A model generated the notes under the pieces. The model searched no databases. It was not told the DNA's origin and was given only the letters and a program-made list of their open reading frames with translations. Shown piece after piece: positions 1 through 64,000 of a DNA stretch of 64,000 bases (positions are counted from its first letter, which is position 1; every line of letters starts with the position of its first letter). The position numbers and the translations under genes were made by a program. The DNA is from Bilabrum cf. latius. Its lineage: Eukaryota. The DNA lies in NCBI GenBank assembly GCA_965178125.1, contig OZ237739.1, positions 744,001 through 808,000 on the forward strand, in the 5' to 3' direction.

Positions 1-3000
1 CGGCAACGACTCGGAGCCGATCTATCCCAACCCTCCGTGGATGCACCGGGCAGACGCGTTGATCCTCGATGCCCTGGAGTGCAGTGGCACGGCCAGTTTG
101 TGCCAGTCGTTGGCAGCGGCCGGTGGCAGTGGAGGCCAGCCAGTAGGCCAAGCCGGGGACGCGGTGCTGCTTGGTGCAGCACCGACCGAGGCAGCGTACC
201 TCGAAGCACTCGGGCTTGGTATCAACGCCAGCACTACCGGTCCCGGCAGTGATTTTCATGCTAGAAATCGGAACAGGACCATGTACCACGTTCAGAGGGC
301 TGCATGTCAGCTGGCCGGGGATGCCCTCGGGGGGCAAGCACCGGCTGCAACTGGAGGTGACAGAGCGCGGCAAGGTGACATCCTGTGGGCCGGTCCGGCT
401 GCAGCGTGCTAGGCGTCGTTCGCTAACCAGCCAGGTGGCCTGCTTGCTGTGGTAATTGCACGCAACCACTCAGAAGGTCACTGGAGGCCGGGAATGCCAG
501 TTCTGGAGGGACCTCTTCCATCGGAGTTGGGACTGGCGCAGGAGGCTGCCATGGTCTGGGTAGGTGGGCTTCGGTGCCTCACACGGTCTTGGGTCGACGG
601 CCCGTCGTGGGTCACTATCACGTGCGAGCCGGAGAGGGGGCTAGTTCCGGGTTTGGCTGAGGTGGTGGTACGCTCGGGTGGGGGCGGCTGGTCCACCGAT
701 GGGCTGGAGGCTCGAGGGATTCGGAGTGGGAGTGGGTGTGCACTCGCTTCCAGGCAAGCCGGAGGTGGATACCCTCGTCCAGAGGAGCCGTCTGCCGACG
801 GCGTTGCCTGCGTCGCCATTGGTTACGCGGGAGAACTCGGATTGCGAGCGGTGGAATCCGCTGCACTTGACGAGAAATGGTGGGAGGTGCCCTTGCTGCC
901 GTCAGAGGAGGCGATCTTCGAACCAGTCGGGAATGCCTGGCACGGCGGCTCTGTGCTCGATGCAAGCAAACGGAGCGTGGCCGGCGGTGCAAACGCTCTG
1001 TCTACAGGAGTAGCCACCGATTCGTCGTTGTGGGCGCTACGTGAGAAACACAGGAGCCCTGCTTCCCTTGGCTACCAGCACGTGCGCCTTCGGATGGGTA
1101 CCCTCTCCTGCAGAGTGTCGCCCGATGCAGGCAGTCTGATGGGACTGCAATCCCGGAACTAGCAGACTGGAAGTAGCAGGGTATCCTGCTGGGTGCACGA
1201 TGACCTCCCGGGCGGGCCGTTCCAGGCTGGCATGCACCTTCCTGGGCTGGAGTGGCTGGAGACGGCGGTCATCCCCGCATCTATCGAAGGCGACGATGCA
1301 GCTGTTGCGCCCCTATGGGTGCGATGGGCGAGATCGTAGCTCCAGGGGGTAGAGCCGCGGAAATTCTCTGTCCTAGACATGCTTCAGTCACACCGAGACG
1401 CGTCGTTGAACACGACAGTCACTCTGCGTGGGACTGGGCTAGAGCAAAATGGAACGTCGGCCGCTGTGGAGGTGTTTGTAGGAGGGGCACGCTGCCTTGG
1501 CATCGAGTATGCGGGCACAGATGCCATTCGCTGCCGAGTGCGGCCTGTCGAGGTGCGCAGTGGTGTCATCGAAATTGTGCGAGGCTCAGGAGGGCTTCTA
1601 CTTGATCCAACAGGGATTGATGCGCAGCAGGAATGGGCCATACTATCGGGAGTGGGTTCGTCCGTTTCGCTTGGAGTCCCGGCGCCAGTCGTATTGCCGG
1701 AACAAGGCTCCCCTAGTGACCGGCACACAGGGCTGCTGTCACCCGCAAACCCGGCCGTCCTGGGGTCAAGCCCCACCACCATGTCCACGAGGGGGGGTTC
1801 CGACCTGCAGCTCCTAGGCGTTGATCTAGGGGCATCACAGGGGGAGTATATCGCTTCAGTGGATATAGATGGCACGCCATGTCAAAACCTCACGTGGTTT
1901 TCCGACTTTGTCCTGCGATGCACCTCCGCTGCTTCGCTCGGAGGATAGGGCACGGTCAACGTGAATTCCATCTGGGGCCAGACCTTTGACAGCGCGCCTG
2001 GCATCATAGCGTACGAAATGCCGGAACTGTCCCCGACCAACCCGGTCGAGGTAGATCCGCCCGCCATTTTTAATGTGCTGGCGGAATCGTACGTGGTCCG
2101 TGCCTTCGGAAAGAACTTTGGTTTCCCCAGGCAAGGGGGCAACGGGACAGAGACGAGAATGCAGGTTTCCGGCAAGGACTGCGAGAACGTCACAGTGGTT
2201 AGCGACGGAGAGATAGTGTGCCACGAGATATCACCGCCGTGGACCATTGGTGACTACAGCGTACGGGTGATCCTGCGTGGAGGACGCACAGCGGTGGCGC
2301 TGAGTGCATTCATCTTTCAGCCGCCGGTGCGGGTGGTTTCCGCCCAGCCGGCCATAATCAGCGGAGGAGGAGGCCAAGTCACGATCGGTGGCACCGGGTT
2401 GGGCGCATCCGCTCTGGATGTGCAGTCCGTGCGGGTTGGGCCGCACGCCTGTGGGAATGTGAGGGTGGAGGAAGGCGGCACTCGCTTGACGTGTGACGTG
2501 CCTCCGGGCGTGGGAGCAGACCATCGAGTCGTGGTTGAGTCTAGGCGCAACGGATAGAACGACCCTGTAGAAGCACCAACAGTCTCCTACAAGGCTCCAT
2601 CAGTCACTAAGCTGTCCATTGTGGCTACGTCTGCGAACGTGGGAGAAGCAGAGCCAGTGGCTGCCGGTGTGTCTGCAATCAACGGCTCGAACTCAAACGC
2701 AACAATCGCAGGCACGCCTAGGGCTGCGTCGTACCTGCACGAGACGCTCGTATAGATAGAAATGGATGTTGCAGATGCGGGTTGGGATCTGCAGCAGTGG
2801 AATCCTGCTACTTCTGTCGCCGGGACAGATGGCGGACTGAACAGCACGCAGGAGTATGTAGTCGCTGTCCGTGGATCCACGTGGGCCGTACCCTGCGCAG
2901 GACTGGAGCTGGTGGGGACACAGCCCGCTGCCGCTGAGCCTTCCATCGAGCTCGTATCAAAGATCCGCTGTACGGTACTGCAGTGGCCCGCAGAGGCCAG

Positions 3001-6000
3001 GATCAGCCTTGAGGCGTTGGGTGGGGCAAGCATGAGCGAGGTGGCTCGAGTTGAGTTCTCAGTTGCTGGGCAAGATGTTCAGGGGCACCTCACAGGGGAT
3101 ACAACCGACGAACTTCGGGCCGCTTCCAGTGCCAGCGGAGGCAGTCTGCTTCTGATCGGTCGGCCTTCCATCCAGGTTGTGAGTCCCCGGCTGTTTCCAT
3201 CCAATGGCACGGCGGATGCGGTGGAAGAGGGAGCTGCAGTGCGCGCGCAAGAAGCTACTGGAGCTGCCAGTCCACCCAGCCAACAGCTAGCGATGGCGCT
3301 GCAGATCTAGTCATTGGCAGAGACTGCTGTTTTTCACCGTGATGACCTGCTTGCGGCTGCACCCACCCTCATGACCGCACCTGCATCTGCCGGGCTGCTT
3401 CAGATCCAGGGCAGTGGAATGGGGTTGGGGCCCTGGGCGCTCAGAGGAGTAACCGTCGGCGGCAAGCCTTCCCGACTGGTGGTGTGGGTCTCTAGCACCG
3501 AAGTGCTTGCATACTGCGAACCTGGTGTGGGTTTTAACGTGCCAGTAGCCGTGCAGACGTTGGGTGGCGATAGTCAGGGGATCTTAGAGGGCGGTGATGG
3601 AAATGGACAGGATGACAGTATGCAAGGAAGTGTGCCACAGCAGGCCGCTATATCCTATCAGGCACCGTACGTAGAGGCTATCGAACCGGAGTACAGCCTG
3701 ACTGGCCCAAACGTACTGTCCAACTTCACAATCATAGGGTCTCATTTTGGTTTTGAGAAAGAAGACGTGGACACCGCGTTCGTCGGAGGGCAGTAGTGCA
3801 ACCCGGTGCTGTGGGTGTCGAACGCGGAGCTGCGGTGTCTCGCAGTGCGAGGGGATAACTGGGAGGGCAGCAACGTAGAGGTGAATGTGCGGCAACAGAA
3901 GAGTCCCCGGAACCGCCTATTTGCCCACATTGGTCAGCCGGTGGTCCAGTCAGTGACCCCGCCCAACGGTGTCGGTGGCAATAGGATCATTATTGCGGGT
4001 GAGAACTTTGGCCGTCAGACCGCTGATATTGACAAGGTCATGCTGGGGCAGCACCACTGCGATGGAGTGGTCCTGCGTGGACCGACATCGATCGAATGCT
4101 TCGTGCCACAGCTGGAGGACATCAACGAGCCGGCCATGCCGGTTGTCGTGCACCAGCGGGGAGGGTCCTTCAGCACCGGCGGAGCTTCGTTCACTTACGG
4201 CGTGCTTGGCACTGTCTGGCCTTTCATAGCATCGCGCGTGCAGGCTTGGCGGGAGAGAAACGACCGGATCGAGGTGCGATGGGCCTTCCCTTTTCCAACC
4301 GGTGAGCTAGCCCTCGCACTTGGAGCAGAGCCGCTCCAGGGATTCGAAATCGAGACTAGGCTACTGCCTGCTGGCACCGGCAGCAGCTACGACGCTACGA
4401 CTGCTAGTGCAAGTGCCAGGAACGTCTCAGAAATCCAGACCACGGTCTTCGATGTTGACCTCGAGGACATTCAATTCCGGAACAGCTCTACCGGTGCGCT
4501 GGCTCTTATGAGGGCCTCCGTGACCGCGGTGGATCCTAGGCCATTACAGCTCCGGATCCGCGCATTGAATGCAGCGGGTGGAGGCCCGGCAACTAGCTGG
4601 AGCCCGCTGATTCCATCAACCTGCGCGCCTACCGAATTCCTGTCGACGTACCTCGATCCTTCCGAGTGGGTGTGCAGGTCCTGCGGGGTGACGGCCGCCA
4701 CGTGCGACGGGGGCTCATCCTTTTCGGTCGCAGCGCGTTCCGGCTACCAGCGACTGCCTTGGGTCGCCGGACGAGCTGCATTTATCCGTTGCCCTAGACC
4801 AGAATCCTGCCTGGTTGACACCGAGATTGCAACCGATAGCAAGGTCAATTCTGCTGCTACCGATAACGATGGCGGGTCTGCGCTGGCCGACGACGGCTCG
4901 GACACATCGTCTCTGCCCACTCTGCAGCAGCTGTACCAGCTTGAGCTACCGCCGCCCTCCATAGCCCTTGAACGGGCCGGTGCCATAAGGAGAGCATACA
5001 GTAACGTTACAGGGGGCAGCACCGCTGTACTTCCTGAAGTTAAGGATAGCCCGGCAGCTCCTGCTAGTCATCTCTCGACTATGCTTCCGCCATGGATGCA
5101 GGAAACTTGCGCTGAGGGCTATTCCGGTATCATGTGCGCCAGGTGCGAGCCTGGATACACACCCTGGGGGTCATATGAGTGCCAGAAATGCCGGGGCGGG
5201 GTCGCTGTGGCTGTCGTTGCTGTTTTGCTTACAATGGTGATCGTCATGATCACCATTGCACTGGTGCTGAATGCCCTGAGGCGAGGGGCGCAGACCGCAG
5301 AAAGACTGCAGCAAATGGCACGTGGTGAGACAGAGCGAGAAGACAGGTGGGGCAACGTGGTTACAATCGACTCGAGGGACGGCCGCGGCCGGATGCACGT
5401 CACTGCTGCTTCTACGGGTGCTGCTGATTCTGCGGGTATTGGTAGCGCCTGTCACCCTGCAAGCTCCATGCCTTTACCAGGCTTCGTGGGGCACCCTGAA
5501 TCTAATCGGTTAGGAGGCAAAGTGACGCTGAACCCCTTGTCCCTTGCACAGGCGGGTACCGCGCACAAGAGGCAGGACGCGTCGGTGGGCCCCGGTGCGG
5601 CTTCAATTGATCCGTCTCCGGATGCAGGGAATCCGTCGAGTAGCCGTCTGCCGTCTCAAACGCCGCAGCAGCCCGGAGAAAAGCATCCGACGGACCAACG
5701 CACAGGCTCTCATGCATCGCAAAGCCAGCTCCTTGCCGGAAATGGCGCTCCTTCCACCGGTAGTACCAAGACGTTGACGGTCAGAGAGCCTCGGCAGTGG
5801 ACGGTAGCGGCGATCAAGATCCTATTCTCCCATGTACAGGTGGTCTCCATCGCCTCGTCGTTCAAGCTATCCTGGCCGTCGTCGGTTCTCCGCTTCTTTA
5901 ATAGCATGACAATGTTCTCGAGAGTTAGCTCGGACGTACTGAGCCTGGACTGCATGCTGCAGGGCAACGGCGACAACGCCGGTGTCGTGAATCCAACGAA

Positions 6001-8011
6001 CGCCACAATGGAGTTGAGCTAGATCGAATCGGGGAGCAGTAGTGGAAATGGCCAAGCGATGGACACGAAATGGCTTGCTGTGGTCGTTGGGGGCGCCGAA
6101 GCGGCGGCCAGCAACGAGAGTAATTTCGCTGGTATCGACCCCTCGAATAGTTGGCCTCATGCCGACCTGAATGACATCAAGGTGCTCGCTGGATCCCTTG
6201 GAGTGCACGAGAGTATCATGCTGGGTGAAGGCAAGAGCAGCTCCGGGATTGCGGCCCTCATGCCTCACGGCTCGACGTATTTCCTTCGTACGCTCGTGGT
6301 GCTCATGAGCCCGTTCGTGCTTGTGGCCGGCCTGTCCCTCTTCTGGATCATAGTGGATGCGGTCGATGGATGTCTGTATGAACACGTAGACGAGGAAGAG
6401 GAGGACAAAAATAATTATAGGGAGGGCTTGGCAAGGGAAGAACATCATTAGAGCCGTCCCCAGCCGAACAGAAGCCAGGATTTGCTAGGGGCTGCAGCAG
6501 CGTCCGCGCGTGGAAGCAGGATAGATGCAGCCACTCGGCAGTGCGATGAGCCGGGTGGCCTACGCACGAAAAATGGCAGTGCAGGAGTGATGGGCCACAA
6601 TAATCACATGCCGGGGAGTGCAATGGAAGAGGGTGGGCGCACCCGCCCAGATGACTTCCGACGGCGCCGGAGTAGCGTGTTCGTCCAGTTGGCAAGGGGC
6701 TCACTGCCGGGCCTTGGCCGGCAAGCCTCTTCCACTAAGCCTGATAAAAGCGTCCCTGGGGGAACTGATAGCGAAATTGAGGGTAGTCCTGGTGCTGCCC
6801 GCGGCCCTGGTGTTCAAGAAGGTATGAACGATAGTGCTGGCTCCAATGGCATCCAGGTTTTCATTTCGGGAGGCCGCGGCGGACGGGAACGCGCTGCCGC
6901 AGAAGATAGCGGTGACGATAGTGGTGATGATGAGATATTCTGGCTGGCTGGGTCGAAGCGACCAGCCAGCATTCTGCAGTACGTCGGCGTGCCCCTCCAG
7001 GTGCTGCGACTGTCCCTCGGGATGCGGATCCTGTCGGGCCTCATCGTGATCGGCTTCCTTGTGCATCTGACGCTGACGGAGGCGTCCTTCGGCATGATGA
7101 CCTGCACAGACGTGAGGCCAGACGTGGATCTAGCGGCTGAGGACAGACTGGATCCAGCGGAAGGACGGCAGGGGGGTCTGTCGATGAGTCCGGGGCTGAC
7201 CGACGACTGCCCCGCAGGGACGGAGGGGCGCCGCCTGGTGCTCGACCTTGACGTGTGCTGCTACAACCCGAAGGCATTGGTGCTAATGTACGGCGTGGGG
7301 ATCCCCTCCGTGCTATTGTTTGCCGTCGGCATTCCGCTATCTGCCGGCCTGTGGCTGTGGAGGGTCAGGTGGCACACCGGGGAGCCTGCGGTCCTCTCTA
7401 CGCTAGGGTTCCTCATGGTGGGTTTGCAGGGCAATGCGTACTACTGGGAGGTCGTGGTGATGCTGCGAAAGCTGGCTGTGGTTGCTATTACGGTACTGGT
7501 GGAGCCCTGGGGGGTGCGTGTGCAGACCTACTCGGCCCTGGCCGTGATTTTCGCCGCCAGCGTCCTGCATTCTCTGTACCGGCCGTACAACGCCGGTGAG
7601 TTGAACGCGCTTGAACTGATCGCACTCTGTGGCGCCTTCCTGACGTTCGAGGCGGGCCTGTTCCTGCACGACCCCAACTCAGGCGAGGCCACCATCATGG
7701 CGGCGACTGCTGTGGTTTTCCTGTCAAACCTCGTCGTACTCATCGCTGGCATGTATGTGATGAAGGAGAGCATCATTAAGGCTGGGAAGAGTGCGTGCAT
7801 TGCCATTGGGGCAGTTGCAAGCAAGTGGGCGGGCGGTGAGGGCGGGGGTAAGGATGCGTCTACGGCACCTCAGAAGGGGACCAACAGCCGCGGGAGTGCA
7901 GGTACTAGTGGGCCGGCTGTTGCGAGCGGAAATGGACAAGGTCAATCTGGATGGCCTGCAGGAGGTACCGGTGCCGCTGGTGGGTTATACCGCGTGGGTG
8001 CACTAAGCTGA
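1..8011 (+). CDS. Large surface/membrane protein, 5'-partial: IPT/TIG-like repeats, FN3-like domain, Cys-rich (EGF/laminin-like) segment and multi-pass TM C-terminus
   Basis: Nine ORF-track fragments (41, 449, 1379, 1961, 2762, 3314, 3806, 6059, 6482) share one frame and are separated only by TAG (410, 1160, 1337, 1946, 2555, 2753, 3308, 3794, 6020, 6449); ends TGA 8009-8011. TIG-like motifs (ITIGGTGLG..VRVGPHAC..LTCDVPPGVG; IAGENFG), LRIRALNAAGGGP, CAEGYSGIMCARCEPGY, TM block with YYWEVVVMLRKL. Confidence 0.85.
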
Positions 8012-8046
8012 CTCAGCTGAGGCCAGCACAGCCTAGGCCGGTGCTG

Positions 8047-25100: not shown

Positions 25101-25378
25101 ACTCCGACGGCGGCGACGAGAGCCACCGTAGCTCCCGCGCCACCCGTCCATCCCCACCTTTGCGCCGGCGTCACGCAGACACCCTGGGTAGCCCCATCAG
25201 GAACGTCACGAAATCCATCATCAGCGTAAGAGGGCTGGGCGAAGGCTCCTTCTTGGCTGCTGGCAAAGTTGCTAGAGGCATGCTCGGGCGGCAGAACCAC
25301 GGTGTCTTCGGCAGCGATATCTCCGTACATACCCTCATTCGATTCTTTCCCATCTTCACGAAGTTTAGCTCCCGACAT
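22133..25378 (-). CDS. M1 family aminopeptidase (aminopeptidase N/ERAP1-like), type II membrane anchor
   Basis: ATQFEAT.AR.AFPCFDEP, GAMENWGL, HELVHQ..NEGYA, FDDISYAKGGS and an ERAP1-like C-terminus; four in-frame TAG (24647, 23738, 23438, 22229); TGA 22135-22133. Confidence 0.93.
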
Positions 25379-25643
25379 ATCAGATGAGCGGAGACGCGGG
25401 GTGGCAGCGTCCGAACGAAAGACTAGGATTGATTTTTGGGCCCTTGCGTGGAGATCTATTTCTGCAACGAACCTCTCCGAACGTTCGTATCGTCTGAAAT
25501 GACCAAAACTACAGCACTCGATTTCTGCATCCATGCACCGGACAATTAGCAGTCCGCGCATAATTCGCACATTAAAAAGATTAAGATCCACCAGATCTGT
25601 CCAGGATGTATCTGTAAATCAAGTTTTAGCGCAATTGCAAGGC

Positions 25644-47000: not shown

Positions 47001-47312
47001 TACGTTCAGCGACAGGGCCACCTCTATGTCATCAACCGCGGCCGGCTCGCTCGCCCACACGCGGATGGTAACCAATTCTCCCTCTGATGATGCATCTGGA
47101 ATGGTAATATTAGATTCGGATTCAAGAGGGAGCTCTATTGTACCGATGGCGGCGTGAAAGCGCGGCACTGAAGAGCTGCTGAGCCGTCGACCCCAGGAAC
47201 GAAGCTGTTCTACATCTTCAAGTCCGACGTCCGCCTCCTCGTACGAAGAGGCCTGTGATAACTCTACATATACTCCAAGTACCACGGCCGAAATTGCAAG
47301 AACCGCCCACAT
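29049..47312 (-). CDS. Giant polycystin-1/REJ-like receptor (~6,090 aa): signal peptide, Calx-beta-like repeats, REJ, EGF-like, GPS, multi-TM, IQ motif
   Basis: 20 ORF-track fragments in a single frame, 25 in-frame TAG, no TAA/TGA until 29051-29049. Signal MWAVLAISAVVLGV; repeats FT.ANW..PQ.V.V.A.DD; REJ VNQPPFSG..WTDDEEDLPLRYLFGY; GPS CRYFDEE..CATLHLTDFS; IQ-like VQSAYRRFHA. Confidence 0.88.
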
Positions 47313-47615
47313 TCTGCCCGAGAACCGCGGTATAGCAATAACGGAAGGGTTCACGGCACGCGCCACGTTTCAAGGCCAGGCTGCGTGTCGATACTTGGAA
47401 CTACCAAGAATGTATCGTCTAGGTCTTGTGCGAACCTTTTGCTTTAGTAACACCTAGGCTTTATCGCTACTTGTGCGCTGGAAATGCGAAAATGCGTCCG
47501 GAGCGTTTTGGGTACCCCTTCTGTGAACAGATGGTCGCAACATGTGCAAGCACAAAACCACGGCCTGAACTGGCTGCAAACGAATAAATTGGAGAATGCT
47601 GCAATGACAAATGTA

Positions 47616-49324
47616 TCATGTCATCGTAAAGTGCGACTGGAGCTGCTTTCTAAGCTCGAGAGAGTCTGCGTGCTCTGGGTACGCCTCCAGCGCCCTTCCA
47701 ACCATCTCGAACGCCTCCTGAAACTGCCCTACTTTGTACGCCAGCAGTGCGCCGTTGAATTGAGCCTCGTACAGGTGTGGCGCAAGACGAGCTGCGGATC
47801 GAAACGAAGCCCGGGCCGCCTCAACGTTCCCCCGGCGCATCTCCAGCACGCCGAGATTCACCATGGCCTCCGCGTGCTGGGGGTCTGCCGCGAGCGCAAC
47901 CTTGAACGCCTGGTAAGCGACTCCCATATCGCCAATCCCGATGCCTATGTGGCCCACGTTGTACCAGACGTCGGCCGCCGCGTCGTCCTCGGCCATGGCG
48001 AGGGCCCGCTCGAGGCACGTGAGAGCCATGTCGAACTGGGAGGCGTAGAAGCAGCACAGGCCCAGGTTGGTCCACAGCTCGGCGGAGTGCACGCCCATCT
48101 GGAGCAGCCGCCTATAGTACCGCAGCGCGATCTCCGGCCGGTCCGAGTAGAAGAAGTTGCTCGCCAGCGATGCGATTGCTTCGATGTGGCCGGCGTCCCT
48201 CGAGAGCACGCGCCGGTACAAGGCGGCGCTGGCCTGCACCTCCCCCAGCATCTCATGGACCCTGGCCATGCCCTGCAGCAGGTAGGCCTCGTCGGGGAAC
48301 CGCTGCAGCCCCTTCGAGTACCACTGCAGAGCAGTGGCCGGCTGGTCCAGCTTCATGTAGCACTTGCATAGCTCGAGGTACCCGTCCACCGTGGGCTGCG
48401 TCTGCAGGGAGCTCTTGAACTGCCGCTCGGCCTCCCGCAGCAAGCCCAGCTGGTAGTACGCCTTGCCCAGCCGTGACTTCCACCACCAATCCGCAAAGCC
48501 AACCTTGACTGTGGCTGCTGCCGCCAGCTCCACTGCCTTCCTCGGGTTATGGTCGTGATACAGAATGTACTCGCAAAGGGCCTTGGCCACTGCTGCTCGC
48601 CCGGCGTACCGCTTCATGTCCAATCGTTCGACGTCGATGAACGGACCGCCTTCTTGGGACATCATAGACGCAGTGCCCAGCCGCACCGCCCGCCCGAGGC
48701 TGGTCATGGGCCGGGAGCTGCCCGCCCTTGAGCTCTTGAAGGCGCTGCTGGCGCCAGTCTGCATCCCGGTGATCGGCCGGGATGACGTCCCCGGGCGTAA
48801 GAATCCCGACACTGGTCGACCAGTGGCCGTTACAGGACGCATGGCGGGATTGTTTGCGGAGGAAGCGCTCCCAGTGATCGGTCGATGCAATGATGTTCCA
48901 GCTCTGCGCGCAAGGACGAAGTATCATCAATGTACAATGAAAAGGTCCATGAAGATGCGAGCCGCACTTTCTGATACCGGAGTCGCTATGACAACCTACT
49001 TGCTCACCTCGGCAGCTGGGCAAGGGCGTTGTCGTCCATTAACAGTTCAGCTACGCCCTCCTCCTCCATCTCTGTATCGTCAATCCACATCTTTTCTGTC
49101 AGTGCCCTGGTTTTCAGCATCCAGACAGCCCGATCGAGAGAATTCTATTTTAACAACTTAGTGCATAGATCGATGCATGCATCGTACTGCTAGCAGTCGA
49201 ATTTAAACTGGGCATAGAAGAAAGGGTCCACGCCAGCGGGGATCGCAGCCTCATCAGTGGCACCCGCCTGGCTTTCACCAGCTCCGCTAGCAGCAGCGGC
49301 TATTGGCTTTAACGGAACTGCCAT
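47616..49324 (-). CDS. BBS8: BBSome subunit TTC8/BBS8, 2 exons
   Basis: Exon 1 DPFFYA..CIDLCT..AVWMLKTRALT..EEEGVAELLMDDNALAQLPR with TAG at 49190 and 49145; intron 49007-48904; RPMTSLGRAVRLGTASM, DWWWKSRLGKAYY, TPR array; TGA end. Confidence 0.96.
48904..49007 (-). other. Spliceosomal intron (104 nt)
   Basis: GTGAGC...GCGCAG; splicing gives QLPRAGTSL, matching BBS8 PRPGTSL. Confidence 0.92.
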
Positions 49325-49449: not shown

Positions 49450-50235
49450 ATGGAAGCTTCCTTTGGGTAGACAGTGTCTGGTGCTCTAAAATTGAAAGGA
49501 ATTGATCTTAGTGCGTCAGCAGCAGGGGGCAAAAAGAAGAAGAAGAAGGACAAGAAGCGCAAGAAGAGTTCCAAGGACTCTGGCAGCGAAGCGGCCAGCT
49601 CTTCCCTTGTCGGACGGAAGCGATCGCGAGAGCCTGATGCGTCTCATGATGCAGATTCATCTGGGATGATTGGCGCTAGAGTGTTTCGAGGAGCAGGGTC
49701 CGTGACTGTGGCCGGGACTGTCGTCACCGGGATTGGGACGAAGTTCCTGTCTGAGTTGCGGGATGGTGACGCCATCAAGTTGGAAGCTCCATCCTTACCG
49801 TATTCGCCACCATCGAGTGCAGCTAGCAGTAGCTCCAGCGGTGCATCGACTGCTTCAGCAGCGGCTTCCAGTACTTCTAGTGGCGAAGTGCGCGTAGTGA
49901 AGCACGTCTTCTCGGACACCCAGTTGAAGATAAGTTCTCCCTTCCCCGGGACCCACGCCGCTCCCGTTCCATATACTTGCATGACCCTCCCTCGAAAGGT
50001 GGAAACCGAAGCAGACCGTCAGGCGAAGGAAAAGCGGCGGAGGCTGGCGGAGGAGAGCGCGGCTGCCGGCACGTACGGGGGTGCCGGCGGCCACGTGCTG
50101 ACGTTCCGAGAAAAGAAGGCAGGCACTTCCCATGGATCCTACCGTATCGTCACCAAGAAGCTGGACGGGCCTATCAGCAGGGAGGAGCTGTTGCAGATGA
50201 GGGCCAAGAAGAAGAGCGACAGGTACTGCATGTGA
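49450..50235 (+). CDS. Basic nuclear-type protein with FRG1-like termini
   Basis: ATG 49450, TAG 49468, LKLKG + poly-Lys N-terminus; C-terminus ELLQMRAKKKSDRYCM resembles the FRG1 tail (LLDRRAKLKADRYCK). Confidence 0.7.
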
Positions 50236-50359: not shown

Positions 50360-52857
50360 TCAAGGACCCTCTACTGCCAGAGGCACGGGCCTAGCCGTGA
50401 CGCCCTCTACATCGGTGCTTGCAGACCTGTGCCGCACCCCGCCAGAGAGACTTGAAAGCTCCACCGAGGCAGCATAGGCCACAGCACCGGCTGCGTCCCC
50501 AGGTTGTACCACATCAACGGGATGGCCCCTCCCGTTCTTTGCACCTGCCTTGCCTTCCTCCCCCCCTCCCTCCCCTTCTCTGTCCTACATGCCCAGCTGG
50601 ACCTGTGCCCCCTCCCTCTCCTGCTCCTGCTACTCCTCCTTGCGCATGGCAGCGGCATTCACGATGGCAGCTTCTTTCTGTCTCGTGTTCTCGCCCTTCT
50701 CTGCCGCATCGTTTATGAGGCTCCAGCCACCCAGCATCAGGGCCAACATGCCGAGAGCAATCCAGCTGAAGCTCCCAAGAAATGCCAGCTTGCCGCCGCC
50801 CATCTGGTAGAGCCACCCTCCCATGAGCGCCCCGATCGCGCCCCCGAGCCCCCAGTGTGTTCCTGTAAGCAAGCCCTGTGCCGTGGCTTGCAATTCTCGG
50901 GGAGCCGCCGCGTTTGCGAATGCGGTGCACGCAGCCCAGCCGGCGCCGTAGGTCACCCCATGCAGCAGCTCGGCAGGCAGCACCCACCAAGCATCGCCAG
51001 CAGCTGGCACGACGTACGAGTACCACAGAATCCTGAGAGTGTACGCGACCAACGCCGCCATCAGCATGGCAGAGTGGCCAAAGCGGCGCAAGAAACCCCC
51101 CGAGTAGTGAAACACGGGTACCTCGGCCACGCACGTCACCAGCAGGCACATTCCGAAGAGGAACCGAGACGAGCCCGGCTGCGTCTCGAGGTACACGAAC
51201 AGGAACCCGCCGATGGTGCCAAAGCATGAGCCCATGCATAGCGCAACAAGAAGGAAAACCTGCATGGCGCGGTTTCCCACCAGCATCTGCACCTCGTCCC
51301 AGGTTGACCTCGGCTTGGCGGCCAGTGATGAAGCGCCGGCTGCGGCGCCGTGCGGGCCAGACACAGGCCGGCCCGACCGAGCCGCACCTTCCGCGCCTTC
51401 CAAATGTCCCGCAATTGGAAGCAGAGACTACTGCTCCACCTCGCTTGGCTACCCTGCACCATGTCGCTCGCTGTCGCCGAGCCCCCCGTGCACAGGAGCA
51501 TTGGCCCCCGCCCCACCGAGCCCCGAGCCCTCCTGCTTGTAGGCCTAGTCCGAAGAAGCCCTTCCTCGGGAGAGGTGGGCAAACTTGGGCGCTGTTTTCG
51601 CAGCACGCCCATCCTCAATCTCCACTACTTCAGCCTTTGATTCCAAGCCCATGGCTGCGTCGTCCTCACGACCCCGACCATGTGTAGCCGCCCCGCCTGC
51701 CTCGCTTCCCACTACTTCCTCGTCGCCCTCCGCCCCACTCACAGACCCTCCCATGCCAATGAAACCAAGCCCCCCTTGGGTCGTGCCATCACTCACGCTG
51801 CCAGATACGCTATTCCTGTCCCTGTTCCCTTCGCCGCCGCCCAGAGCAGCGTCAACATCCCTGGTGACCGCCCTCATCCTCTCCTATGCGAGGCTCTTCG
51901 AATGGGAGCTGGCCACCAGACCGATGGCTTCGTCCTCCCAGGCCTCGTCCTGAATGGCACCTGAGATGTGTCTTTCATCTGAACCCTCGTCACGATCATG
52001 ATCTCGCGTTTTCTGCTGGATGCGGGGCAGCTCGGCAGATCCACCCGTGCCGGCGCCGCGCCCTGCCACAGCTTCCTCCCCTTGGTCTTGGGACCGGTCC
52101 ACAGGCTCGTCCAATCCGCAGTCTCGAATCACAACAGCTGCAACCAGGGCAGACAGCGCTTGAAATACCGCGAACATCATGAAGCTCACGGCGAAAGACT
52201 TGGTTGCGTCCTGCACAGCTCCAGCGACTGGCGACATGATCCCCCAGCCTACCGCCCCATAGAGCCTTTGCTGCCCGTAGTCTTCGGCAGCATGCAGCTT
52301 GATCCGCGAGTCCTTTTTGGCTGGAGTTGATTGAGATGCAGACAGCGCCTTGGAACGATTCACGACTGCCATCACGGCGGCGTCCAATTGGGATGGGACC
52401 GGGGAGGCCACAAATTCGGCGATAAGGACAGCAGCTAGAAGCGGCCAAAATGTGTGCAGGCTCAGCAAAGAGAATCGAAGGATTGTACCAGCAACCAGCA
52501 GTGATAGAAATACGCACACGCGGCTCCCAGCTTTGTCAGCCACCATGCCCCACAGTGGTGAGGCAACAATGCTAGTGACGTTCCCGATAGCTCTCAAAGT
52601 TCCGATTTGGACCGGATCCAGGCCGTTGTCTTCGAATAGAAGAACTACAAATGGCATGAAGCAGGCCCAGCCGCTATAAATCAGGCCGTACGAAGCCTTG
52701 CATCTCCAAAGCAATCCCTGGAGAACGCTATCTTGGGATTCGACTGGAGTAATCATTATCTGCAAGCTGGCCCACGCATCGAATTGCAATGTATTAGAGC
52801 TCGAAACGGCAAATACCTTACCCCAAGGAAGTAATTGGGCATTTCATGTTCCTGCAT
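50360..52857 (-). CDS. Major facilitator superfamily transporter (MFSD6-like)
   Basis: Two 6-TM halves (ASPLWGMVADK, YGQQRLYGAVGWG, AEVPVF, ELLHGVTYG, LQATAQGLL); TAG at 51884, 51545, 51449, 51428, 50630, 50585; TGA 50362-50360; probable intron 52821-52760 (GTAAGG..CTAAT..TTGCAG). Confidence 0.88.
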
Positions 52858-52956
52858 TTGGTGGTTGTAACCACTTTTGCAGCTTGCGACCAAACGGCAA
52901 ATCCTGGCGCGACCGCGCCCTCGACCGGCTGCCAATCACCTCTGTACTTTATCGAG

Positions 52957-53876
52957 ATGGCCGAGCCAATCCATGTAGAGGGAGCTGTGAGTTACTCGTT
53001 GTTGGTTTGATATGAAGGCTGCTTGGCCTCGATGTGATCACTTCATCTTGGCCCGAACAGCACCTATTGCTATTGTCGTTAAGCACGCAGTCTTGCGGCA
53101 ACACATTCTCACGCATCGTGAACATCACGGTATTCAAGGTAGAGGGACTCCCGAAAGGACTACTTGGGTTTCCCAATGCATACGTAAAGAGTAAGTTTGG
53201 ACTATGGAGTTGCCCAAAACCCGGTCACTGCCTCGAAACCGATCTCTGCTTTGGTTGGGGTAGATGGCCTGCGTGGGTGCCTATTCGACATTGTGATCGC
53301 GGTGTCCTTTGATTGTTCATTTAACATATCCTTGCAGTGACCCCTGATGTGCCTTGCCAGGGCGGAGTGCTTGGAACTGCTTTCCAGGGTGAGAGCCAAC
53401 TACGGAGCCAGTGCATTCACAGGCATAGGAGCCAGTCGAGAAGCAAGTTTGCTTGCTACAGCGTGCATATAATACTTAACTGTCTACTGAGACTACTGCT
53501 GCGATGCATGGATGCATGGATTCTGTATATTGTACATTTGTCTCTCGCAGGGCTGTCGAGAACGCGCACCTTGACTTCTGACGACGGCAACTACCAGTGG
53601 AATGAGTCGCACGTGATGATGTGCATGCCACAGAAGGGATCTCGCATCGTGTTTGAGGTGTTTGAGAAGGGTACGCTGTGGGACTCGCCCTACGGCAAGG
53701 CTATTGTTACGTTCGATAGCCAGCTGAACGAAGATGAGAGCAAGGCCCAGAAGAGCTTCAAGAAGACCGGCATGATCATTGCCGAGATTGATGCTGGAAG
53801 CAAGGGTGGAGGCCGCATCTACTACCAGATCTCGACCATGGGAGCCACGACCCCGTTCCAGATGACTACGGCATGA
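52957..53876 (+). CDS. Small C2-domain protein, 4 exons
   Basis: Exons 52957-52986, 53091-53190, 53338-53388, 53551-53876 with phase-consistent GT-AG introns; VNITVFKVEGLP..PNAYVK..WNES..IVFEVFEKGTLWDSPYGKA. Confidence 0.75.
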
Positions 53877-56512: not shown

Positions 56513-57297
56513 ATGCGTGGAACACTTACTGCTGCCATGCTAGCAATTGCCTTTGCGTGCATCACGCGAACCACCTCCGCCCAGGAAGCCTGCTGCGCCG
56601 ACGTGTGCATCGGCGGGGCCGATGATGTCTGCAACGGGAGTGAATGCAGTGAAGGCTTCGAGTCGTGCATCTGTGCAGGAGCATGCGACTCGCGCGCTAT
56701 TGAATGCGTTGCAGACGCATGCTTCGCTCGCAAGGACAAAGCGAAGGTGAGTGGCGCTCAGGGTTCGCGTGCCACCTCAGGATCGCTACTTTGGCGATGG
56801 CAGTCCGTCTAGTCGAGTTTGCACGAGACTGCTACTCTAGGATGCAAGTAACAGCCATACGTGTATTTAGTTTCGCACCGCAGCGGGATGGCGTCATCGC
56901 TGCAGCGGTCCTCACGCCAATCGTGCTGCTCGCGGCATCCATCGTCGGCTGCGCCTACTGCTGCAAGTGCTGCTGCTTTGCGCCAAAAGAGGGACAGCAA
57001 GTGACCATCGGGCATGTTGGAGGCACACCACATCCAACGTACGCAGCTGGTGCACCCCATGCAACTGTGAACCCGACCATTGGCACTGGAATCGCCCCGG
57101 GAGTGATCGTGGGCCCACAGGGATCAGCACAAGCTCCCACACAAAACATGCACCAGGCCCCTACGCAGCCGCCTCCGCCCCCAGGACCGTCGCTACCAGA
57201 GGGATGGTCTGCGATCACAGACCCGTCTACGCAGCGCACGTACTACGCGCACACGAGCGGGAAAACGCAGTGGGAACTGCCGGAATCTTCCAAATGA
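56513..57297 (+). CDS. Single-pass membrane protein: Cys-rich ectodomain, Cys cluster after the TM helix, C-terminal WW domain (2 exons)
   Basis: Signal peptide; intron 56747-56883 (GTGAGT...CCGCAG, phase 0); TM VIAAAVLTPIVLLAASIVG; LPEGWSAITDPSTQRTYYAHTSGKTQWELP. Confidence 0.85.
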
Positions 57298-57461
57298 GAC
57301 TGCTTGAGAGACGGGTATCGGTTGAACCTGATTGCGTCTCCTCTGCACAACCCAGTGCTAGATGAGGGCTGTGCCACAATGAGATGGATTGTCACCGATG
57401 CTTGATTTTGATTGACCTGTGTGCGTCCTATGCTGTCTCTGCAATTGACCACGAGGCGGCC

Positions 57462-60400
57462 TCACAGCATCATTGCGAAGCCGGCTTCATCGCATCCCTT
57501 GCTCTTGGCTACCTCCAGCACCAACGCTTGCATTCCTTCCATGAACCGAGGCGTTCCAATCACGTACACCCTTCGCAACGAAGCACCAGCGGCTGCATTA
57601 TGTCCCCTGCTGCCCCCAGTCGAAGAAGATCGCTCGTCCTGTGGTCCGGCCCACACGCGGATCGGCAATGCGTCGGTGAGCGTGCCAGCTACCATCGCTC
57701 CTCGTCGCAGTACGCGATGCATTAAGAACGCTTCCAGCGCATCCCTGCCAAATCTGCCTTCGGACCACGATTCGGGCCGGATGCCGCACAGCACTGCGGA
57801 CCCTGCCCCGGTTGTCCCGGACACGGGTGCATCCTCGCCAATCGCACCGAGACTACCGATGCCAGTGGGGGCTTGCTTGTAATTGATCCACAGCTGCAGT
57901 CGAGGTGCGGCTGGCACGCCCCATGGGCCTGTGCTGCCGGCAAGCTTGCGCAAAATCGACCTAGCAGCCTGCAGCGCCTCTGCGATCAGTGCCATCTTGC
58001 GCAGCCAATGCACCGCGACCGCGTCTGTCTCGCTGGCTGCAAGCAAGCAGATGCGCATGCACATGCTGGACCCAACCAGGTTGCGAGCACGTTCGCGGAT
58101 GGCAGCCGGCACTGTCAGGACCTTAATGATTGCCTCGCGGGCCCTGGCGAAGTGCTTGTCATTGTCAGTGCCGCTGCCCTCAAGTGCTGTTGCCACAGCG
58201 TACTTGCCGCTGGGGCTCGGACCCGCAGGCCCATCCACTCCCGCGCTGATGATGCGCTGGCGATCAAGCCCACCTCCAGTAGATCCTTTCGTAGGATTGG
58301 ATGCTGCCGCGACCCCGGGCAGCGGCGAGATGTCGCTTGCTGCAAGTAATACACCGCCGGAGCCAGGTGGACTGGAACTATCGTCCTGGCGTACAAGCCG
58401 CAACAACTGGTCCAGTTCTTCCTCATCCAGCGCAGAAGACAGCACCAGCTGCGTAGCGAAGTCCAGCACTGGCAGCACTCCAGTGCCAGCCGCCACCACC
58501 CCAATCACGTTTGTACCTGCAGCGGAAGCACGATCTGAAGCATCGTCCCCGCCCGGTCCAGATGCTGCCCCGCCCCCTTGGACTGAGGTCGCCCGCAACG
58601 CGTGATCTGGTATAGACATACCTGCCCCGTATGGGCCTCCTAATTTCACAGCAGCGTGCTCCCCAAGCTCCGCGTGCGCGATTTCGTGCAGGTAGCTGGA
58701 CGCCAAGCCCCCGTCGATTCGACGCACACAAAGTGACAGCGTGGAAGCCGTTGGCGTTGCGAGGCTGCCAATCAGGTCCTGCAGGCTCGCTCCTTCAAAG
58801 TGGGGAGCGGCTGCTCGCGCGCCGATCGCGCTCCTGAACGTGTCAAGCATGCCCACACCTCCCGCAGAGCCAGAGTCACATCGGGCGAGGCCATCCAGCA
58901 GCCGCCAGGTGAGAGAGGTCCATGGCTGCATACCGGCAGCCAAGTCGACACGAACTATGGTGTATGGCCGCGTGACCTCTGCCTGAACAGCTGCAGGGGC
59001 ACCTTCACTAATCCTACCGTCCTCTGAGTGCCCATTGCCGACCCTCGACGCGCGAGAGGCCTTTGATACGTTGCTGCCAACCCGTCGCAGATTGCGATTT
59101 GAGATGCCGCCAGTGGCACTCACCACAGTCCTTCTTGACTTCATCTTATCTGCCATAGCGCCGACACCCGCAGCAGTGGCATGCGCCGCATTGCCACCTG
59201 CGCCATGCACAGCGGTTGACCCCTTGCGCACCTCCTGTTCGGAGCCGGCCGCAATCACCGACGCAGCTCTATCCTCTGCCTCCGCGGCAACATCTGTGGT
59301 CCGTAATCGATCTGGAGACAGGTGCACATACATGTGCTGCGCGTATGAGTCTAAATTTGAGGCATCCAGGGTCAGAGGGGGACCATCAGGCTTCGTCCGG
59401 CCAGGCACTTCATCGCCGCTGCTGCACTGCACGGTTATCTGCGCCACTGGCCGCTGATCAACAGGTAATCCAATGGATGTGCACAGAGAGTCCTCGCCAC
59501 TTGTGACTGCCTCTGGTCCGGTGAGGAACACGGACTTCTAAACGTTGAATAGCCTGGGTGCGCAGTCATCAGAGCTGCTGTACCCGCTCCCACTTCCTTG
59601 GCCTTCGGCAGCAGGGCCTCCCTCAACGATCTTCTAAAGATCCCCATCTTTCAGCGCCTCGTGGATCAGCAGCCACGAAGACCTCCTCTCCTTGGGTTTC
59701 TTGCTTCCCTGCAGACTAACCCTCCTCTGCTTTTTGCTTGGGCTGGACCTGCCACTGGCGATGGAGTTCCGCGAGACGCGATCGGCCCGGCTGCCTCCTT
59801 CGAAGCCACTTGGCTTGCTGGTGGGGCTCGCCTTGCTTTCGGAATTGACTGGCTCACCCTCGGGTTTGCCTGCGGCCTCGCCCCCTCTCTCGACAGCATC
59901 CTCGTCGGGGACAAGCGAGGCGATAGCGAGGTCAGCCAGCAGAGCCCATGCGTAGTCCGAGTGCTGGTGCAGAGCGAGCCTCTTGTCCATCCTGGCCTCT
60001 CCAAAGAAATACTCAGTAATATCCTTGCCAATGCTCCGAGTAATCACGGCTGAGCTACCAGGATGGCGGGGCGCGAAGCCAGCGAGGTCGACTACAAAGT
60101 CATTCACGATGGTGAACTCGTCGCCTGCCTCGATGCACTCGTGAAAATGTGACACGGTCATCAGTGGCAGATCGCTGCCCCCATCGTCTTCAAGCCCGAT
60201 CGCTTCGATGCCAGTTTCAGAGCTGGCCAGTCGAGACATGTCACGGTCGCTCTACATCGAGGTGCCAGGGAGCGACATGCCGCCGGAATCATCCGCGGTG
60301 GGCAGCAAGCGCAGCTGCTCGCCAGCAGAAATCTTCGAATCTGCAATACCTGCATGCCTAGCTCTTGCACTGCTGCGAGCCGTCTACGCGGCGGAGACCA

Positions 60401-63400
60401 CCCTCGTCAGTGTACCCATTCCGACCTTGGGTGGGCGGGCCCTCACATCGGAGAGGCCCTGCCGACTGCCTCGCCTCTTGAGCTTAGCAGTGCGCAGGCT
60501 CGTCAGGACACCCTTGGACTTTGCGCGGTTCCGCAGCAGAGACAACTGGTATTGCTCGTACACACCAATGCCGATGAAAGCAGCGATAATCAGGCCGTAC
60601 CAAGCGATGGGCAGCCACATGTACCCTCTCGCAGTCATCTCAAATCCGATCGCAACGTTCGCCACGGTCAAGCCAGCCACGAACCACCCGAAACCTCGAT
60701 GCCCGATGCGCCACGGTTTGAACACAGCAGATGCGTTCACGTCCTCCCCAGTATGGTATTCTTTTGCTGCCCGCCCCATCATCAGCTGGATTACGGCGCA
60801 GCCAGTGATGATCACCCCGATGAGCAGGTGCGGCGACAGGCGCCCGTTCCCCGCGCTGAAGGCAGCAGCAGCTGCGGGTATTGTAATGGCAGTTGCCAGC
60901 GTCATTGCCATGGCGTGAAAATCGAGCCAGAACTGCCGGTGCTCCTTGAATGCCCTCAGTGCGAGCCACGTGATGGGCAGCAGCACGGCCCAGCACGTCG
61001 TCATCAGCACTGCGTGCACAATAATGGGCACAGGCACTGCTGGGACTAGGGACCGCACAGAGCTGTCTACCTCGATTTGAGAGCCGGCAAACAGTGGCAG
61101 GGCCACCACCTAGCGCCTGCTGGTCCCATGGTATGACATGACGATCGTGTTGAACTGCCAGGCAAAGATCATCTCAACCAGATCAGAAGAGCTCGGCGCG
61201 GAGGAGGCGCCGGCGCTCTGGTTGCTGGGCGCGCCTGCATACTCTTGCACGTTCTCTGGCACATAGATGCGCTTGTTCCTCCCGTCAAACGGGTCCACCG
61301 GTCGCACAAATTGGCAGAACACCACCTGCTCTACTTCTGCACCGGGCGATGGTCCCTAGCCGTCGGGACCGAAGATTGTGCTGGCGTTCAGCTGAGACGA
61401 CACCTCGCTACGTTCCGACATGGGCCTCTCCAGGACCAGCCCTAGGCCAGCTCCACCTGCTGCCAGCTGTGTGTCGAGCCATGGCACCGCGCTATCGATG
61501 CTGGGCACAGTCTGTGCCTGGCTCGTGGTGTCGTGCAGCTCTAGTGACCTCGCTTCCCTGCCCTGCGGTGTCTGGCATGTGATGATATCCGAATCGAACA
61601 TGCCTCGTCCCAAGCCAAGAGACATCCACGCCACTCCGTTTGTCGTGCGAAGCGCCAGCGTGAAAGCTACATGCGTCACTGGATCGGCACCAGCAGTCTG
61701 CATCCTTCGGCCAGCTCCGGAGCCTCCAGCCACCTATAGACCGAGTCGGTCCGCAGCTGATGCACGGATGGTGCGCCAGCGGAGCACGTGCTGGCAGTCG
61801 CCGTCGAGGAATGCCAGCAGGCTGCACAGCCTAGTCTCGCCATCTCCGCTAGGATCGCCCCCCTAGAAGCCAACGTGCAGCAACGGTCCCAGGCCCAAGG
61901 CCTCCCTCTGCCTCCTGTGCTCGTCCGACTCCCTGCCGATCCCATCCGCTGCCACTGCCTCCCCTGCCAAGATACCTAAGTCATCGGGATCCTGCACGAT
62001 CTCAACCTCATTGGCTGGCAGCACGGCCGCACCGCCAGGCCCGGCCCGCCCCCAGGCCGGCAATACGATGCCTGCCTCGGTATCAGTGCCGTACACCTGC
62101 GCCATCACCGCCTTGTCTGCCTGCTCGTCACCGGACCCGCTGGGGTCACCCGGCATCTCACCAAGGTCTGTCAGAATGGGCACCGCCAGCCGTGTGCGTC
62201 TGGTGCCGTGGTACACCGGTGTGGATGATTCGAAGCTCCATGCCAGCAAGAACGGCAGTTCGGAGGTCGACCCGATCGGCACAGACGTGGCACCGGCTGG
62301 CAGTCCGGACAGCACGTCCACCGGCACAAACGGGAAGTTCTGCGACTCGGAAGGCAGGAGTCGCCTCGACACGACGCAATGTGTGCTGCCAGAGCCAGCG
62401 ATCAGATTCTGCGAATCGCCCCCGCCAAATACTCCGTCCGCGTTGCCACGACCTCCAGCCAGCAGCATGGTGTCTCTCGACACGACCCGCGTGCCATCCA
62501 CCGACCCGTCCGAGGACAGACGAGCCACGTTCCCTCCGTCTGGCCGGGGCGGCAGGAACCCGATACCCGTCCCATCAACCAGCGTCACGGCACCGTCCGC
62601 ATCCACACCACAAAACATAAGATCTGAATTTCCCATCCCGGTCCCGGCCCCAAATCCCGCCCAGGTGGGCGACGGGTCGGATGCATCACCGAGAGAATCC
62701 AGCTCCACGATGATGATCGCAAACTCAACAGTGCCGTCACCAGCGGGGCCGCCAGCCGATGAGCCGGGCACGCCGGCGTCCTCCAGCTCCTGCTCGGTCA
62801 ACCCCAGCGGGCCAGCAACCTCTCTGAGCCTGGACGCCGACATGGTCGCAAACGACAGCCGCACGCCCGCTTCGGCGGACCCTTGCCACGCAGCATCGAT
62901 GAAAGCGTCTCTGGTCCGGTTGAGAGCCATGGGCTGCCCGTTGCTGCTCTGGGACGCAACTCGATCTGCGGGCGCTGGAATAGCCGACACCACGAATGCG
63001 TCGTCTGGAAGCCCGGTGATCTCGTTAGCGGATCGTAGCAAGGCGGACACGCTGCGGCCCCTAACATACTGCAGCTCCAGGCCAGTCAGCAGCCCCTCCC
63101 TCTCGTACCACTCCGGGTCACCATCTCTTAGAGCGAGGAACTGCTCCTCGAGGATGGCCCGGAACAGAGGACCCACCTCGGGGCGGCGACTACTGCTGCT
63201 GCCTACATTTGACGACAGAGGGGGAGGTGGGCCCACTTCCGTTTCTGCCAGCCCGCCGACGATCAGATCAACCGAGGCGTCCAACGCGTCGGGGCACCCG
63301 CCGTACAGGCTCACGAGATCTGCCACGCGCCGTGGGCTCGCACCCGCACCGAGCACGGTGCTCCACCTCCGTACCTCGCCTGGAGCAGCGGGGTCTCCGC

Positions 63401-64000
63401 CCAGGTTGGCTGCATCGCCACCTCCCCCCACCAATCCAGCAGCAGCCGGGCAGCTGGTGTTGGTGAGCAGCTCCAGCGCTTGCTGGGATAGGCCAGCAGC
63501 CCGGGGCAGCTCCCCTCCGCTACTAGAGGTAGGCAAGGGCCCCGCCTCACCCACGAACGATCTCGCGGGCGGGCCGATCCCGGCCTGGTCAGCGGGATCC
63601 ATGTGTTCCCTGTACAGGCGCCTGGCCTCTCCATAGGAAGCCGCGCCCAGGTCCCTGCTCCTGGCGATCGCGAGTGCGACCGCGTCGCCGATGCCGCTCA
63701 CCTCGAAACTGCGGAACCGGGCCCGGATGGAATCCGCCGCGTACAGGCTCGGAGCTGCCGCTTGCCCCACTACCATGCCCCGCAGCAGGGGTGCCCACAC
63801 GTGCCCGGGCCTGGCCCGCTCGGCCTGCACGCCGGCCGGGTCCCTGACCTGCTCGGAGGGGGCGTCCAGCGCCGCCTCAGCCTCGTCTGCGAGCTCCAGC
63901 GGGCGAAACATCCTGGACACGGTGTCCAGGGGGCCGGCAGGGGATAGGCTGCCGTCTTCCCGGAGGCGAAGAGCGGTACCCGGCGTGCGCATCAGGGCCA
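57462..64000 (-). CDS. Fusion oxidoreductase, 5'-partial: heme-peroxidase-like + 2x DOMON + cytochrome b561 + cytochrome b5 + FNR-type FAD/NAD(P)H module
   Basis: One frame with 8 TAG (61863, 61734, 61356, 61110, 60384, 60252, 59634, 59538), TGA end. Motifs VDLIVGGLAE..GPLFRAILEEQFLALRDGDPEWYE; GMGNSD..YHG and GMFDSD..YHG; four b561 His; HPGS..HQHS; RPYT, GPYG, AAGTGVLP. Confidence 0.88.

Follow-up and report, generated by a model that had tools for sequence, protein, structure and literature searches.

A nuclear genetic code in Bilabrum cf. latius in which UAG very probably specifies glutamine and UGA terminates translation

This report concerns a stretch of 64,000 nucleotides (the window) from the eukaryote Bilabrum cf. 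latius (GenBank assembly GCA_965178125.1, contig OZ237739.1, positions 744,001 to 808,000 of the forward strand), in which the codon TAG recurs inside protein-coding reading frames. The reading that we consider very likely is a nuclear code in which UAG specifies glutamine, UGA terminates and UAA has no sense meaning, which is formally of the NCBI table 15 type. The window has a G+C content of 60% and is eukaryotic nuclear DNA of an intron-poor flagellated protist, with spliceosomal introns and poly(A). The material covered consists of the window together with 3.7 kb of a relative's contig, L001. Thirteen gene models could be defined, and the codon tally was made over 12 of them (16,866 codons); the thirteenth is a WW-domain gene of 215 codons.

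When TAG is freed from the set of stop codons, the longest frames in the window reach 6107, 2670, 2179 and 1162 codons, compared with a longest frame of 827 codons under the standard set, 827 with TAA freed and 945 with TGA freed. The longest of all (29049..47369, minus strand) runs for 18.3 kb, and its 6107 codons include 25 TAG and neither TAA nor TGA; the frames of 2670 codons (2..8011, plus strand) and 2179 codons (57462..63998, minus strand) contain 10 and 8 TAG, respectively, and are likewise without TAA or TGA. Over the 12 models, the in-frame tally is 69 TAG, 0 TAA and 0 TGA. TAG thus makes up 0.41% of codons, is present in 11 of the 13 models and, in complete genes (n = 51), is spread evenly over successive fifths of the gene from 5' to 3' (12, 10, 12, 6 and 11). 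Recognizable Pfam families extend across the TAG-bearing frames, including Peptidase_M1 with ERAP1_C, FAD_oxidored, MFS_1_like, MCD, TIG, REJ and An_peroxidase/DOMON/Cyt-b5. An initial annotation, made from the sequence alone, had put the number of in-frame TAG codons at about 70, in 11 of 15 genes, some of them conserved. The count and the 11 TAG-bearing genes stand, with the total of definable models being 13 rather than 15, and the presence of TAG within conserved genes is confirmed both by the Pfam families spanning the sites and by the BBS8 gene, where TAG lies in a spliced first exon. The 18.3-kb frame with 25 TAG that it described was reproduced, and its statement that all models end in TGA holds for each of the 13.

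Retention of these codons in transcripts is indicated by public sequencing runs, 16 of which contain part of the window; four of them (X1, X6, X7 and X8) were compared over positions 44001-64000. X1 behaves as DNA, in that a single contig spans the whole region without joints, and it may be the window's own source. In X6-X8 there are seven joints of 104-162 nucleotides that are lacking in X1, six being GT..AG (plus strand) and one CT..AC, the latter corresponding to the intron of the minus-strand BBS8 gene. In these runs, depth is very uneven, contig ends fit the gene models and one loose end, at 54090, carries poly(A); on the strength of this end and the joints, we take X6-X8 to be RNA. One X6 contig of 18,467 nucleotides begins at 47445 (the aligned part being 44001-47445) and has an end projected from its length at approximately 28979, a span that, on this length-based reckoning, matches the giant gene plus short untranslated regions. 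X6, X7 and X8 cover 22, 10 and 11, respectively, of the 23 TAG codons in 44001-64000, each codon being covered in at least one run. At none of the 23 is there a differing letter or an indel among the contigs of X1 and X6-X8, which come from three studies, and no TAG is lost at any of the seven joints. The expectation, set out in the initial annotation, that TAG would be kept in spliced mRNA is therefore borne out, in contigs that are spliced and bear poly(A), for all 23 codons. The same annotation had named editing, micro-introns and consensus error as what would overturn the reading, and these are excluded at the 23 sites, at the resolution that contigs provide.

The behavior of the other two stop codons is equally informative. 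Reading the same models in the +1 and +2 frames gives 93 TAA in 33,708 triplets, a frequency at which some 46 would be expected in frame in the absence of constraint, and none is found; the lack of TAA in the coding frame therefore reflects selection and not composition. A second expectation comes from glutamine codon usage. The CAA:CAG ratio in the window is 117:510 (CAA accounting for 117/627 glutamine codons, 19%), so that a TAA that also meant glutamine should appear approximately 16 times in the window and 5.4 times in L001, compared with 0 found in each. UAA is not a sense codon, and, TAA being absent from the reading frames, the change affects UAG only. Stop codons are TGA in 13/13 models and TAA in 0/13. 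The position of these stops agrees with that in homologues: the TGA of BBS8 coincides with the homologue end in 98/100 cases, and that of the aminopeptidase lies within 5 residues of it in 92/109. Agreement is lower for the FAD oxidoreductase (45/120 homologues) because many of its homologues have a C-terminal extension. UGA is a working terminator.

As regards the amino acid, one exhaustive HMMER search was carried out with 1200 residues of the peroxidase-like protein encoded at 57462..63998 (minus strand) as the query. Two of the library pieces recovered, P0362 and P0365, are identical or 98% identical to the query and are cut exactly at its TAG codons, which is the product to be expected of a standard-code gene caller applied to this organism. 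The library also holds pieces of the same protein from relatives (45-89% identical), in which the residues at the window's TAG sites are M/R, Q/A, S, Q, Q, L and K; at site 264, where Q stands opposite TAG, 18 of 21 flanking residues are identical. Five of the relatives' fragments with well-aligned C-termini terminate opposite CAG, TAG, CAA, CAG and GAG of the window. When 4983 residues of the giant protein were used to scan metagenomes, there were 44 pattern matches, of which 0 were confirmed. The library protein P0361 equals the window's peroxidase-like product at 381/382 aligned residues and differs in the last 30 or so (window approximately 57462-57560, minus strand); translated by hand, the differing end suggests that the other assembly slips out of frame there.

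A cluster look-up placed most of the relatives' fragments on a single 7.5-kb metagenome contig, of which L001 is half. Frame 0 of L001 is open throughout, with 1249 codons, 13 TAG, 0 TAA and 0 TGA, and each of the other five frames has 15-37 TGA. When the window gene at 57462..63998 is aligned with L001 at codon level (53% amino-acid identity over 1314 columns), there are 21 TAG positions, none of them common to both genes, and 20 face a residue. The lack of common positions points to a turnover of TAG that is fast relative to 53% protein identity, as expected if TAG and CAG are synonymous. Glutamine is the partner of 8 of the 20 (7 CAG and 1 CAA), followed by Ser (3), Ala (2) and Glu (2), with Arg, Leu, Lys, Pro and Gly at 1/20 each; against a background of 3.2% glutamine, the binomial probability of 8/20 is P = 9e-8. 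If attention is confined to the 14 pairs with at least 10/20 identical flanking residues, glutamine is the partner in 7. Ordinary glutamine sites are conserved at 32% between the two genes, so that a frequency near 40% opposite TAG is what a glutamine codon would be predicted to give. With a substitution table derived from the same alignment, the log-likelihoods are -44.5 for Gln, -56.7 for Glu, -62.1 for Ser and -68.1 for Lys, placing Gln ahead of Glu by 12 units. These comparisons show UAG exchanging freely with CAG, and also with CAA, between orthologues, and we hold with high confidence that it is decoded as glutamine.

The open frame of L001 shows the recoding to be common to at least one distant relative. 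It probably occurs in a second as well, given that fragment P0364 (49% identical and on another contig) ends exactly at the window's TAG 264. The proposal of the initial annotation that recoding is genome-wide, with UAG as sense and UGA as terminator, thus finds support in the transcripts, the even spread of TAG, the orthologue on L001 and the absence of TAA. That annotation named no amino acid for UAG, and the comparisons made here point to glutamine.

Several observations weigh against the code as set out above. Within the 64-kb window, searches revealed neither tRNA genes nor Rfam families, and a tRNA gene search in L001 was likewise negative. The labeling of X6-X8 as RNA is by automatic guess only, X6 is even marked as 'probably DNA', and no run is listed as definite RNA. 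The 0/13 count of TAA stops, a small sample from a GC-rich genome, is compatible with UAA terminating or with UAA being unassigned. The other points concern the amino acid, and they are also what would favor an alternative in which UAG is sense but is read as Glu, Lys or Arg, or as several residues by near-cognate tRNAs. Five TAG sites can be aligned with distant homologues (55567, 55318, 49192, 49147 and 22231), and at these basic residues mostly lead, with Gln second to fourth. In the two FAD oxidoreductase columns, 120 homologues (43-50% identity) have Arg in 49/120 and 64/120 and Gln in 13 and 6. In BBS8, the counts among 100 orthologues are R 78, H 6 and Q 6 at one site and K 31, R 16, A 15 and Q 13 at the other, and R and K stand opposite these sites in solved mammalian BBSome chains. 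At the aminopeptidase site, the most frequent residues among 109 M1 peptidases are R 30, Q 25 and A 21. Solved-structure alignment places Q of human PSA opposite the first aminopeptidase TAG; two of the remaining aminopeptidase sites lie inside insertions and the fourth is variable among the 109 peptidases, and the MCD sites are left uncovered by solved-structure alignments. Calibrated on the query's own residues, the first four sites alone give P = 0.007 for Gln, 0.30 for Lys and 0.90 for Arg. Two well-aligned TAG of L001 face GAG (Glu), one of them with 20/20 identical flanking residues. In a calibrated pool of 13 sites from four families, moreover, Gln leads R and K by less than true Gln sites usually do (P = 0.03 and 0.008, respectively). 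For the R/K-rich distant columns we can offer no explanation other than the small sample and a query that has diverged at just these positions, and an assignment to glutamine does not account for them; in BBS8, the conserved Arg residues flanking the TAG sites are likewise replaced in the query. Internal paralogues within the giant, TIG and peroxidase-like proteins (7 TAG sites, 27-37% identity) have the partners Q, S, V, L/S, D, A and S/S and are uninformative. Arg or Lys, as suggested by the R/K-rich columns, was dropped as the meaning of TAG on the orthologue data. There, Arg, Lys and Glu partner only 1, 1 and 2 of the 20 TAG, far below the conservation of ordinary Arg, Lys and Glu sites (61/84, 14/29 and 25/57), and the likelihoods of Glu and Lys fall well short of that of Gln. 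The 13-site pool as a whole also has Gln on top (13.5, compared with 11.1 for Arg and 10.6 for Lys), a total that is ordinary for true Gln sites (P = 0.19). True Arg and true Lys sites put Gln on top in only 0/2000 and 2/2000 draws, and the observed Gln margin is reached by true R or true K sets in at most 0.1% of 5000 draws. We also know of no Arg anticodon that is a single change away from CUA, which counts against Arg. Taken together, a residue other than glutamine, or a mixture of residues, is improbable.

The remaining alternatives concern how, or whether, UAG and UAA are read. Under an ambiguous code, UAG would be sense internally and would terminate near mRNA 3' ends, similar to Condylostoma, karyorelicts and Blastocrithidia, although there the codon is UAA. 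Two models have their last TAG close to the TGA, at a distance of 12 and 15 codons; sequence alone cannot place the true ends of these two proteins, and transcript contigs cannot reveal what the ribosome does. In codes of this kind the reassigned codon also ends genes and becomes scarce immediately ahead of genuine stops. Here, however, TGA closes the frame in every definable model, no model requires a TAG stop, the TGA ends of BBS8 and the aminopeptidase match the C-termini of their homologues, and the last fifth of genes has no shortage of TAG (11/51, a small sample); we regard such ambiguity as very unlikely. That TAG is not translated as such, because of pseudogenes, systematic C-to-T consensus errors, RNA editing or tiny introns, is the default worry for a single assembly, and no point in its support was found. 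The identity of letters in X1 and X6-X8 at 23 TAG codons without gaps, the joints that leave every TAG in place, the frames of up to 6107 codons free of TAA and TGA, and the similar state of an independent relative's metagenome contig make it scarcely credible. An equally slight chance attaches to the ciliate code (table 6), in which UAA and UAG are both Gln, with TAA rare here through GC-richness. Every stop seen is TGA, as in table-6 organisms, but TAA is found in none of 16,866 in-frame codons compared with approximately 16 expected from the CAA share or 46 from the other frames, and in L001 none is found against 5.4 expected. Pyrrolysine decoding, under which UAG is rare, restricted to a handful of families (methylamine methyltransferases) and dependent on pylS/pylT, was rejected on the features of the codon itself, TAG being frequent, present in 11/13 unrelated genes and paired with Gln codons; no search aimed at pylS/pylT was made.

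A somewhat different matter is what UAA does if it is not read. A code in which UAA is unassigned throughout the clade, being neither read nor used as a stop, with eRF1 already restricted to UGA, like that of organisms using the ciliate code, and only tRNA-Gln(CUA) present, seems to us doubtful, although less so than the alternatives just discussed. It is permitted by the lack of TAA among 13 stops, among 16,866 sense codons and in L001; a mere preference for TGA in a GC-rich genome could give the same data, which are therefore compatible with it without requiring it. If true, it would represent a living intermediate between the standard code and that in which UAR (UAA and UAG) is Gln, in a lineage near the stramenopiles, for which nuclear code changes are not on record.

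In mechanistic terms, glutamine at UAG with UGA as terminator would call for two changes, by analogy with other reassigned codes (Panek et al. 2017, McGowan et al. 2024). A tRNA-Gln whose anticodon had changed from CUG to CUA would read UAG but not UAA, and eRF1 would no longer release at UAG. The pairing of anticodon CUA with UAG, and not with UAA, is given as an argument for codes of this kind in the accessible part of PMC11687900.

Evidence on the lineage comes from BBS8, for which the maximum identity to any library protein is 64% and the best named matches are oomycetes, haptophytes and Bicosoecida sp. In a single-gene tree of 101 rows (maximum likelihood, quick mode), the query falls in no supported clade; P0174 and P0138 are the closest rows by path length and Bicosoecida sp. 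the closest that bears a name, with Cantina marsupialis and oomycetes branching nearby. The initial annotation had guessed at a bicosoecid-like stramenopile, and this is compatible with the tree, the grouping of which is unsupported, so that the placement is not demonstrated; stramenopile affinity is plausible on this gene. Its authors' remark that no such code was known in a bicosoecid-like stramenopile agrees with the full-text literature searched (supplementary files lying outside it), in which no nuclear UAG reassignment in this group is reported. In the accessible part of a stramenopile review (PMC11412368), codon reassignment is mentioned only in a mitochondrial reference. The sequencing runs date from 2025, and a description may be in preparation or lie outside that literature.

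The genes themselves are as follows, all ending in TGA. At the left edge, a TIG-domain membrane protein with its 5' end truncated by the window (2..8011, plus strand) has 2669 codons and 10 TAG, with a match to PF01833 TIG (E 2e-37). It is followed at 10065-14742 by a tandem array of approximately 36 copies of a 130-bp unit with 91-92% identity and no credible family match, which produces long spurious open frames in the three plus-strand frames and is probably a non-coding intergenic satellite. A low-complexity/coiled-coil protein without family match (15568..17910, minus strand; 780 codons, 3 TAG) has an uncertain start, and a Methyltransf_22-domain protein (18666..21248, plus strand) has 860 codons and 4 TAG. 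The M1 aminopeptidase, aminopeptidase N/ERAP-like with Peptidase_M1 and ERAP1_C domains (22133..25561, minus strand; 1142 codons, 4 TAG), and a malonyl-CoA decarboxylase-like protein (the MCD family; 25533..28136, plus strand; 867 codons, 4 TAG) form a divergent pair with almost no spacer. Their first ATG codons, at 25561 on the minus and 25533 on the plus strand, lie such that the two genes overlap by 29 bases, and at least one of the two start codons probably lies further in. Next is the giant REJ-domain membrane protein (29049..47312, minus strand), with 6087 codons from the first ATG, 25 TAG and a match to PF02010 REJ (E 6e-36).

The BBS8/TTC8 orthologue (47616..49324, minus strand; 534 codons) consists of exons 49324..49008 and 48903..47616 separated by an intron at 48904-49007. 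Its two TAG codons (49192 and 49147, minus strand) are both in exon 1, which is joined by the intron visible in the RNA-like contigs. Beyond it are a small lysine-rich protein (49450..50235, plus strand; 261 codons, 1 TAG at codon 7) and an MFS_1_like transporter (50360..52756, minus strand; 798 codons), whose 6 TAG are located in loops and the tail. A small gene with three GT..AG introns (52957..53876, plus strand; 168 codons) is without TAG. Its poly(A) loose end is at 54090, and contig depth over this gene is by far the greatest in the RNA-like runs (up to approximately 2900 in X6, as word depth); by eye only, its product has the look of a C2-type domain.

The FAD-dependent oxidoreductase (PF12831; 54152..55720, minus strand) has 522 codons and 2 TAG. 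Its closest named relatives (43-50% identity) are bacterial metagenome proteins (Hydrogenedentes, Bryobacterales and others) along with a few EukProt transcripts, and it may be an old bacterial transfer; the 2 TAG that it carries would mean a stay in this genome long enough for the host's code to be taken up. A spliced membrane protein with a signal-peptide-like start and a WW-like motif, read from the translation (56513..57297, plus strand; 215 codons), is without TAG. Last comes the peroxidase/DOMON/cytochrome b5/reductase-like fusion (57462..63998, minus strand), which is truncated by the window at its 5' end and has 2178 codons and 8 TAG. Its reductase part was judged from the translation, without a family match; the C-terminal end resembles what we take to be a ferredoxin-reductase-type domain motif.

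The code described here bears on both the evolution of genetic codes and the handling of sequence data. Nuclear codes that split UAG from UAA are few, the accessible parts of the papers cited below giving one fornicate, one rhizarian, one green alga and a few ciliates, and the present case would add a further independent origin in a GC-rich flagellate lineage near the stramenopiles. A code common to relatives at approximately 53% protein identity offers a clade in which the gain of a suppressor tRNA, the change in eRF1 and the fate of UAA can be placed in order. On the practical side, gene callers that apply the standard code truncate the proteins of this organism at each TAG, and the public library already contains such fragments; table 15 is therefore required when this lineage is annotated, binned from metagenomes or used in phylogenomics.

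The type of code is already known, and what is probably new is its occurrence in this host lineage, with an independent origin. Code 15, with TAG as Gln, is reportedly used by crAss-like and other phages, which are viral and are translated in bacteria, whereas the window is nuclear DNA with introns and poly(A). Among eukaryotes, and as far as the accessible parts of the papers go, Iotanema spirale (Fornicata) reads UAG as Gln and stops at UAA and UGA (Panek et al. 2017, PMC5304391). The likeness is close, in that only UAG is reassigned, to Gln, UAA is not sense and the organism is a free-living flagellate outside the ciliates; however, Iotanema belongs to Metamonada and has UAA as its primary terminator, whereas here 13/13 stops are TGA in a GC-rich genome. 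The ciliates Hartmannula sinica, Trochilia petrani and Protocruzia tuzeti also have UAG as Gln (McGowan et al. 2024, PMC11687900) and so share the same formal code, with UAG widely used as sense. In these, according to the part of that paper available, UAA is 'ubiquitously' the preferred stop, whereas only UGA is seen here, and the window is unlike a ciliate in its GC content and in the stramenopile rows nearest to its BBS8. Organisms with UAR as Gln (table 6), listed in the same source as Tetrahymena, hexamitin diplomonads, some ulvophytes, Streblomastix and Amoeboaphelidium, resemble the present case in UAG as Gln and UGA as terminator, but differ in that UAA is Gln also, where 0 TAA were found here against 16-46 expected. 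Finally, those parts of PMC5304391 and PMC11687900 describe codes in which UAG has other meanings: Leu in the rhizarian exLh and in uncultured phyllopharyngean ciliates, Ser in Scotinosphaera, and Glu in the ciliate PL0344, where UAA is Lys. All have in common with the window that the meanings of UAG and UAA are decoupled; they differ from it in the residue, since the partners of TAG here are Leu in 1/20, Ser in 3/20 and Glu in 2/20, compared with Gln in 8/20.

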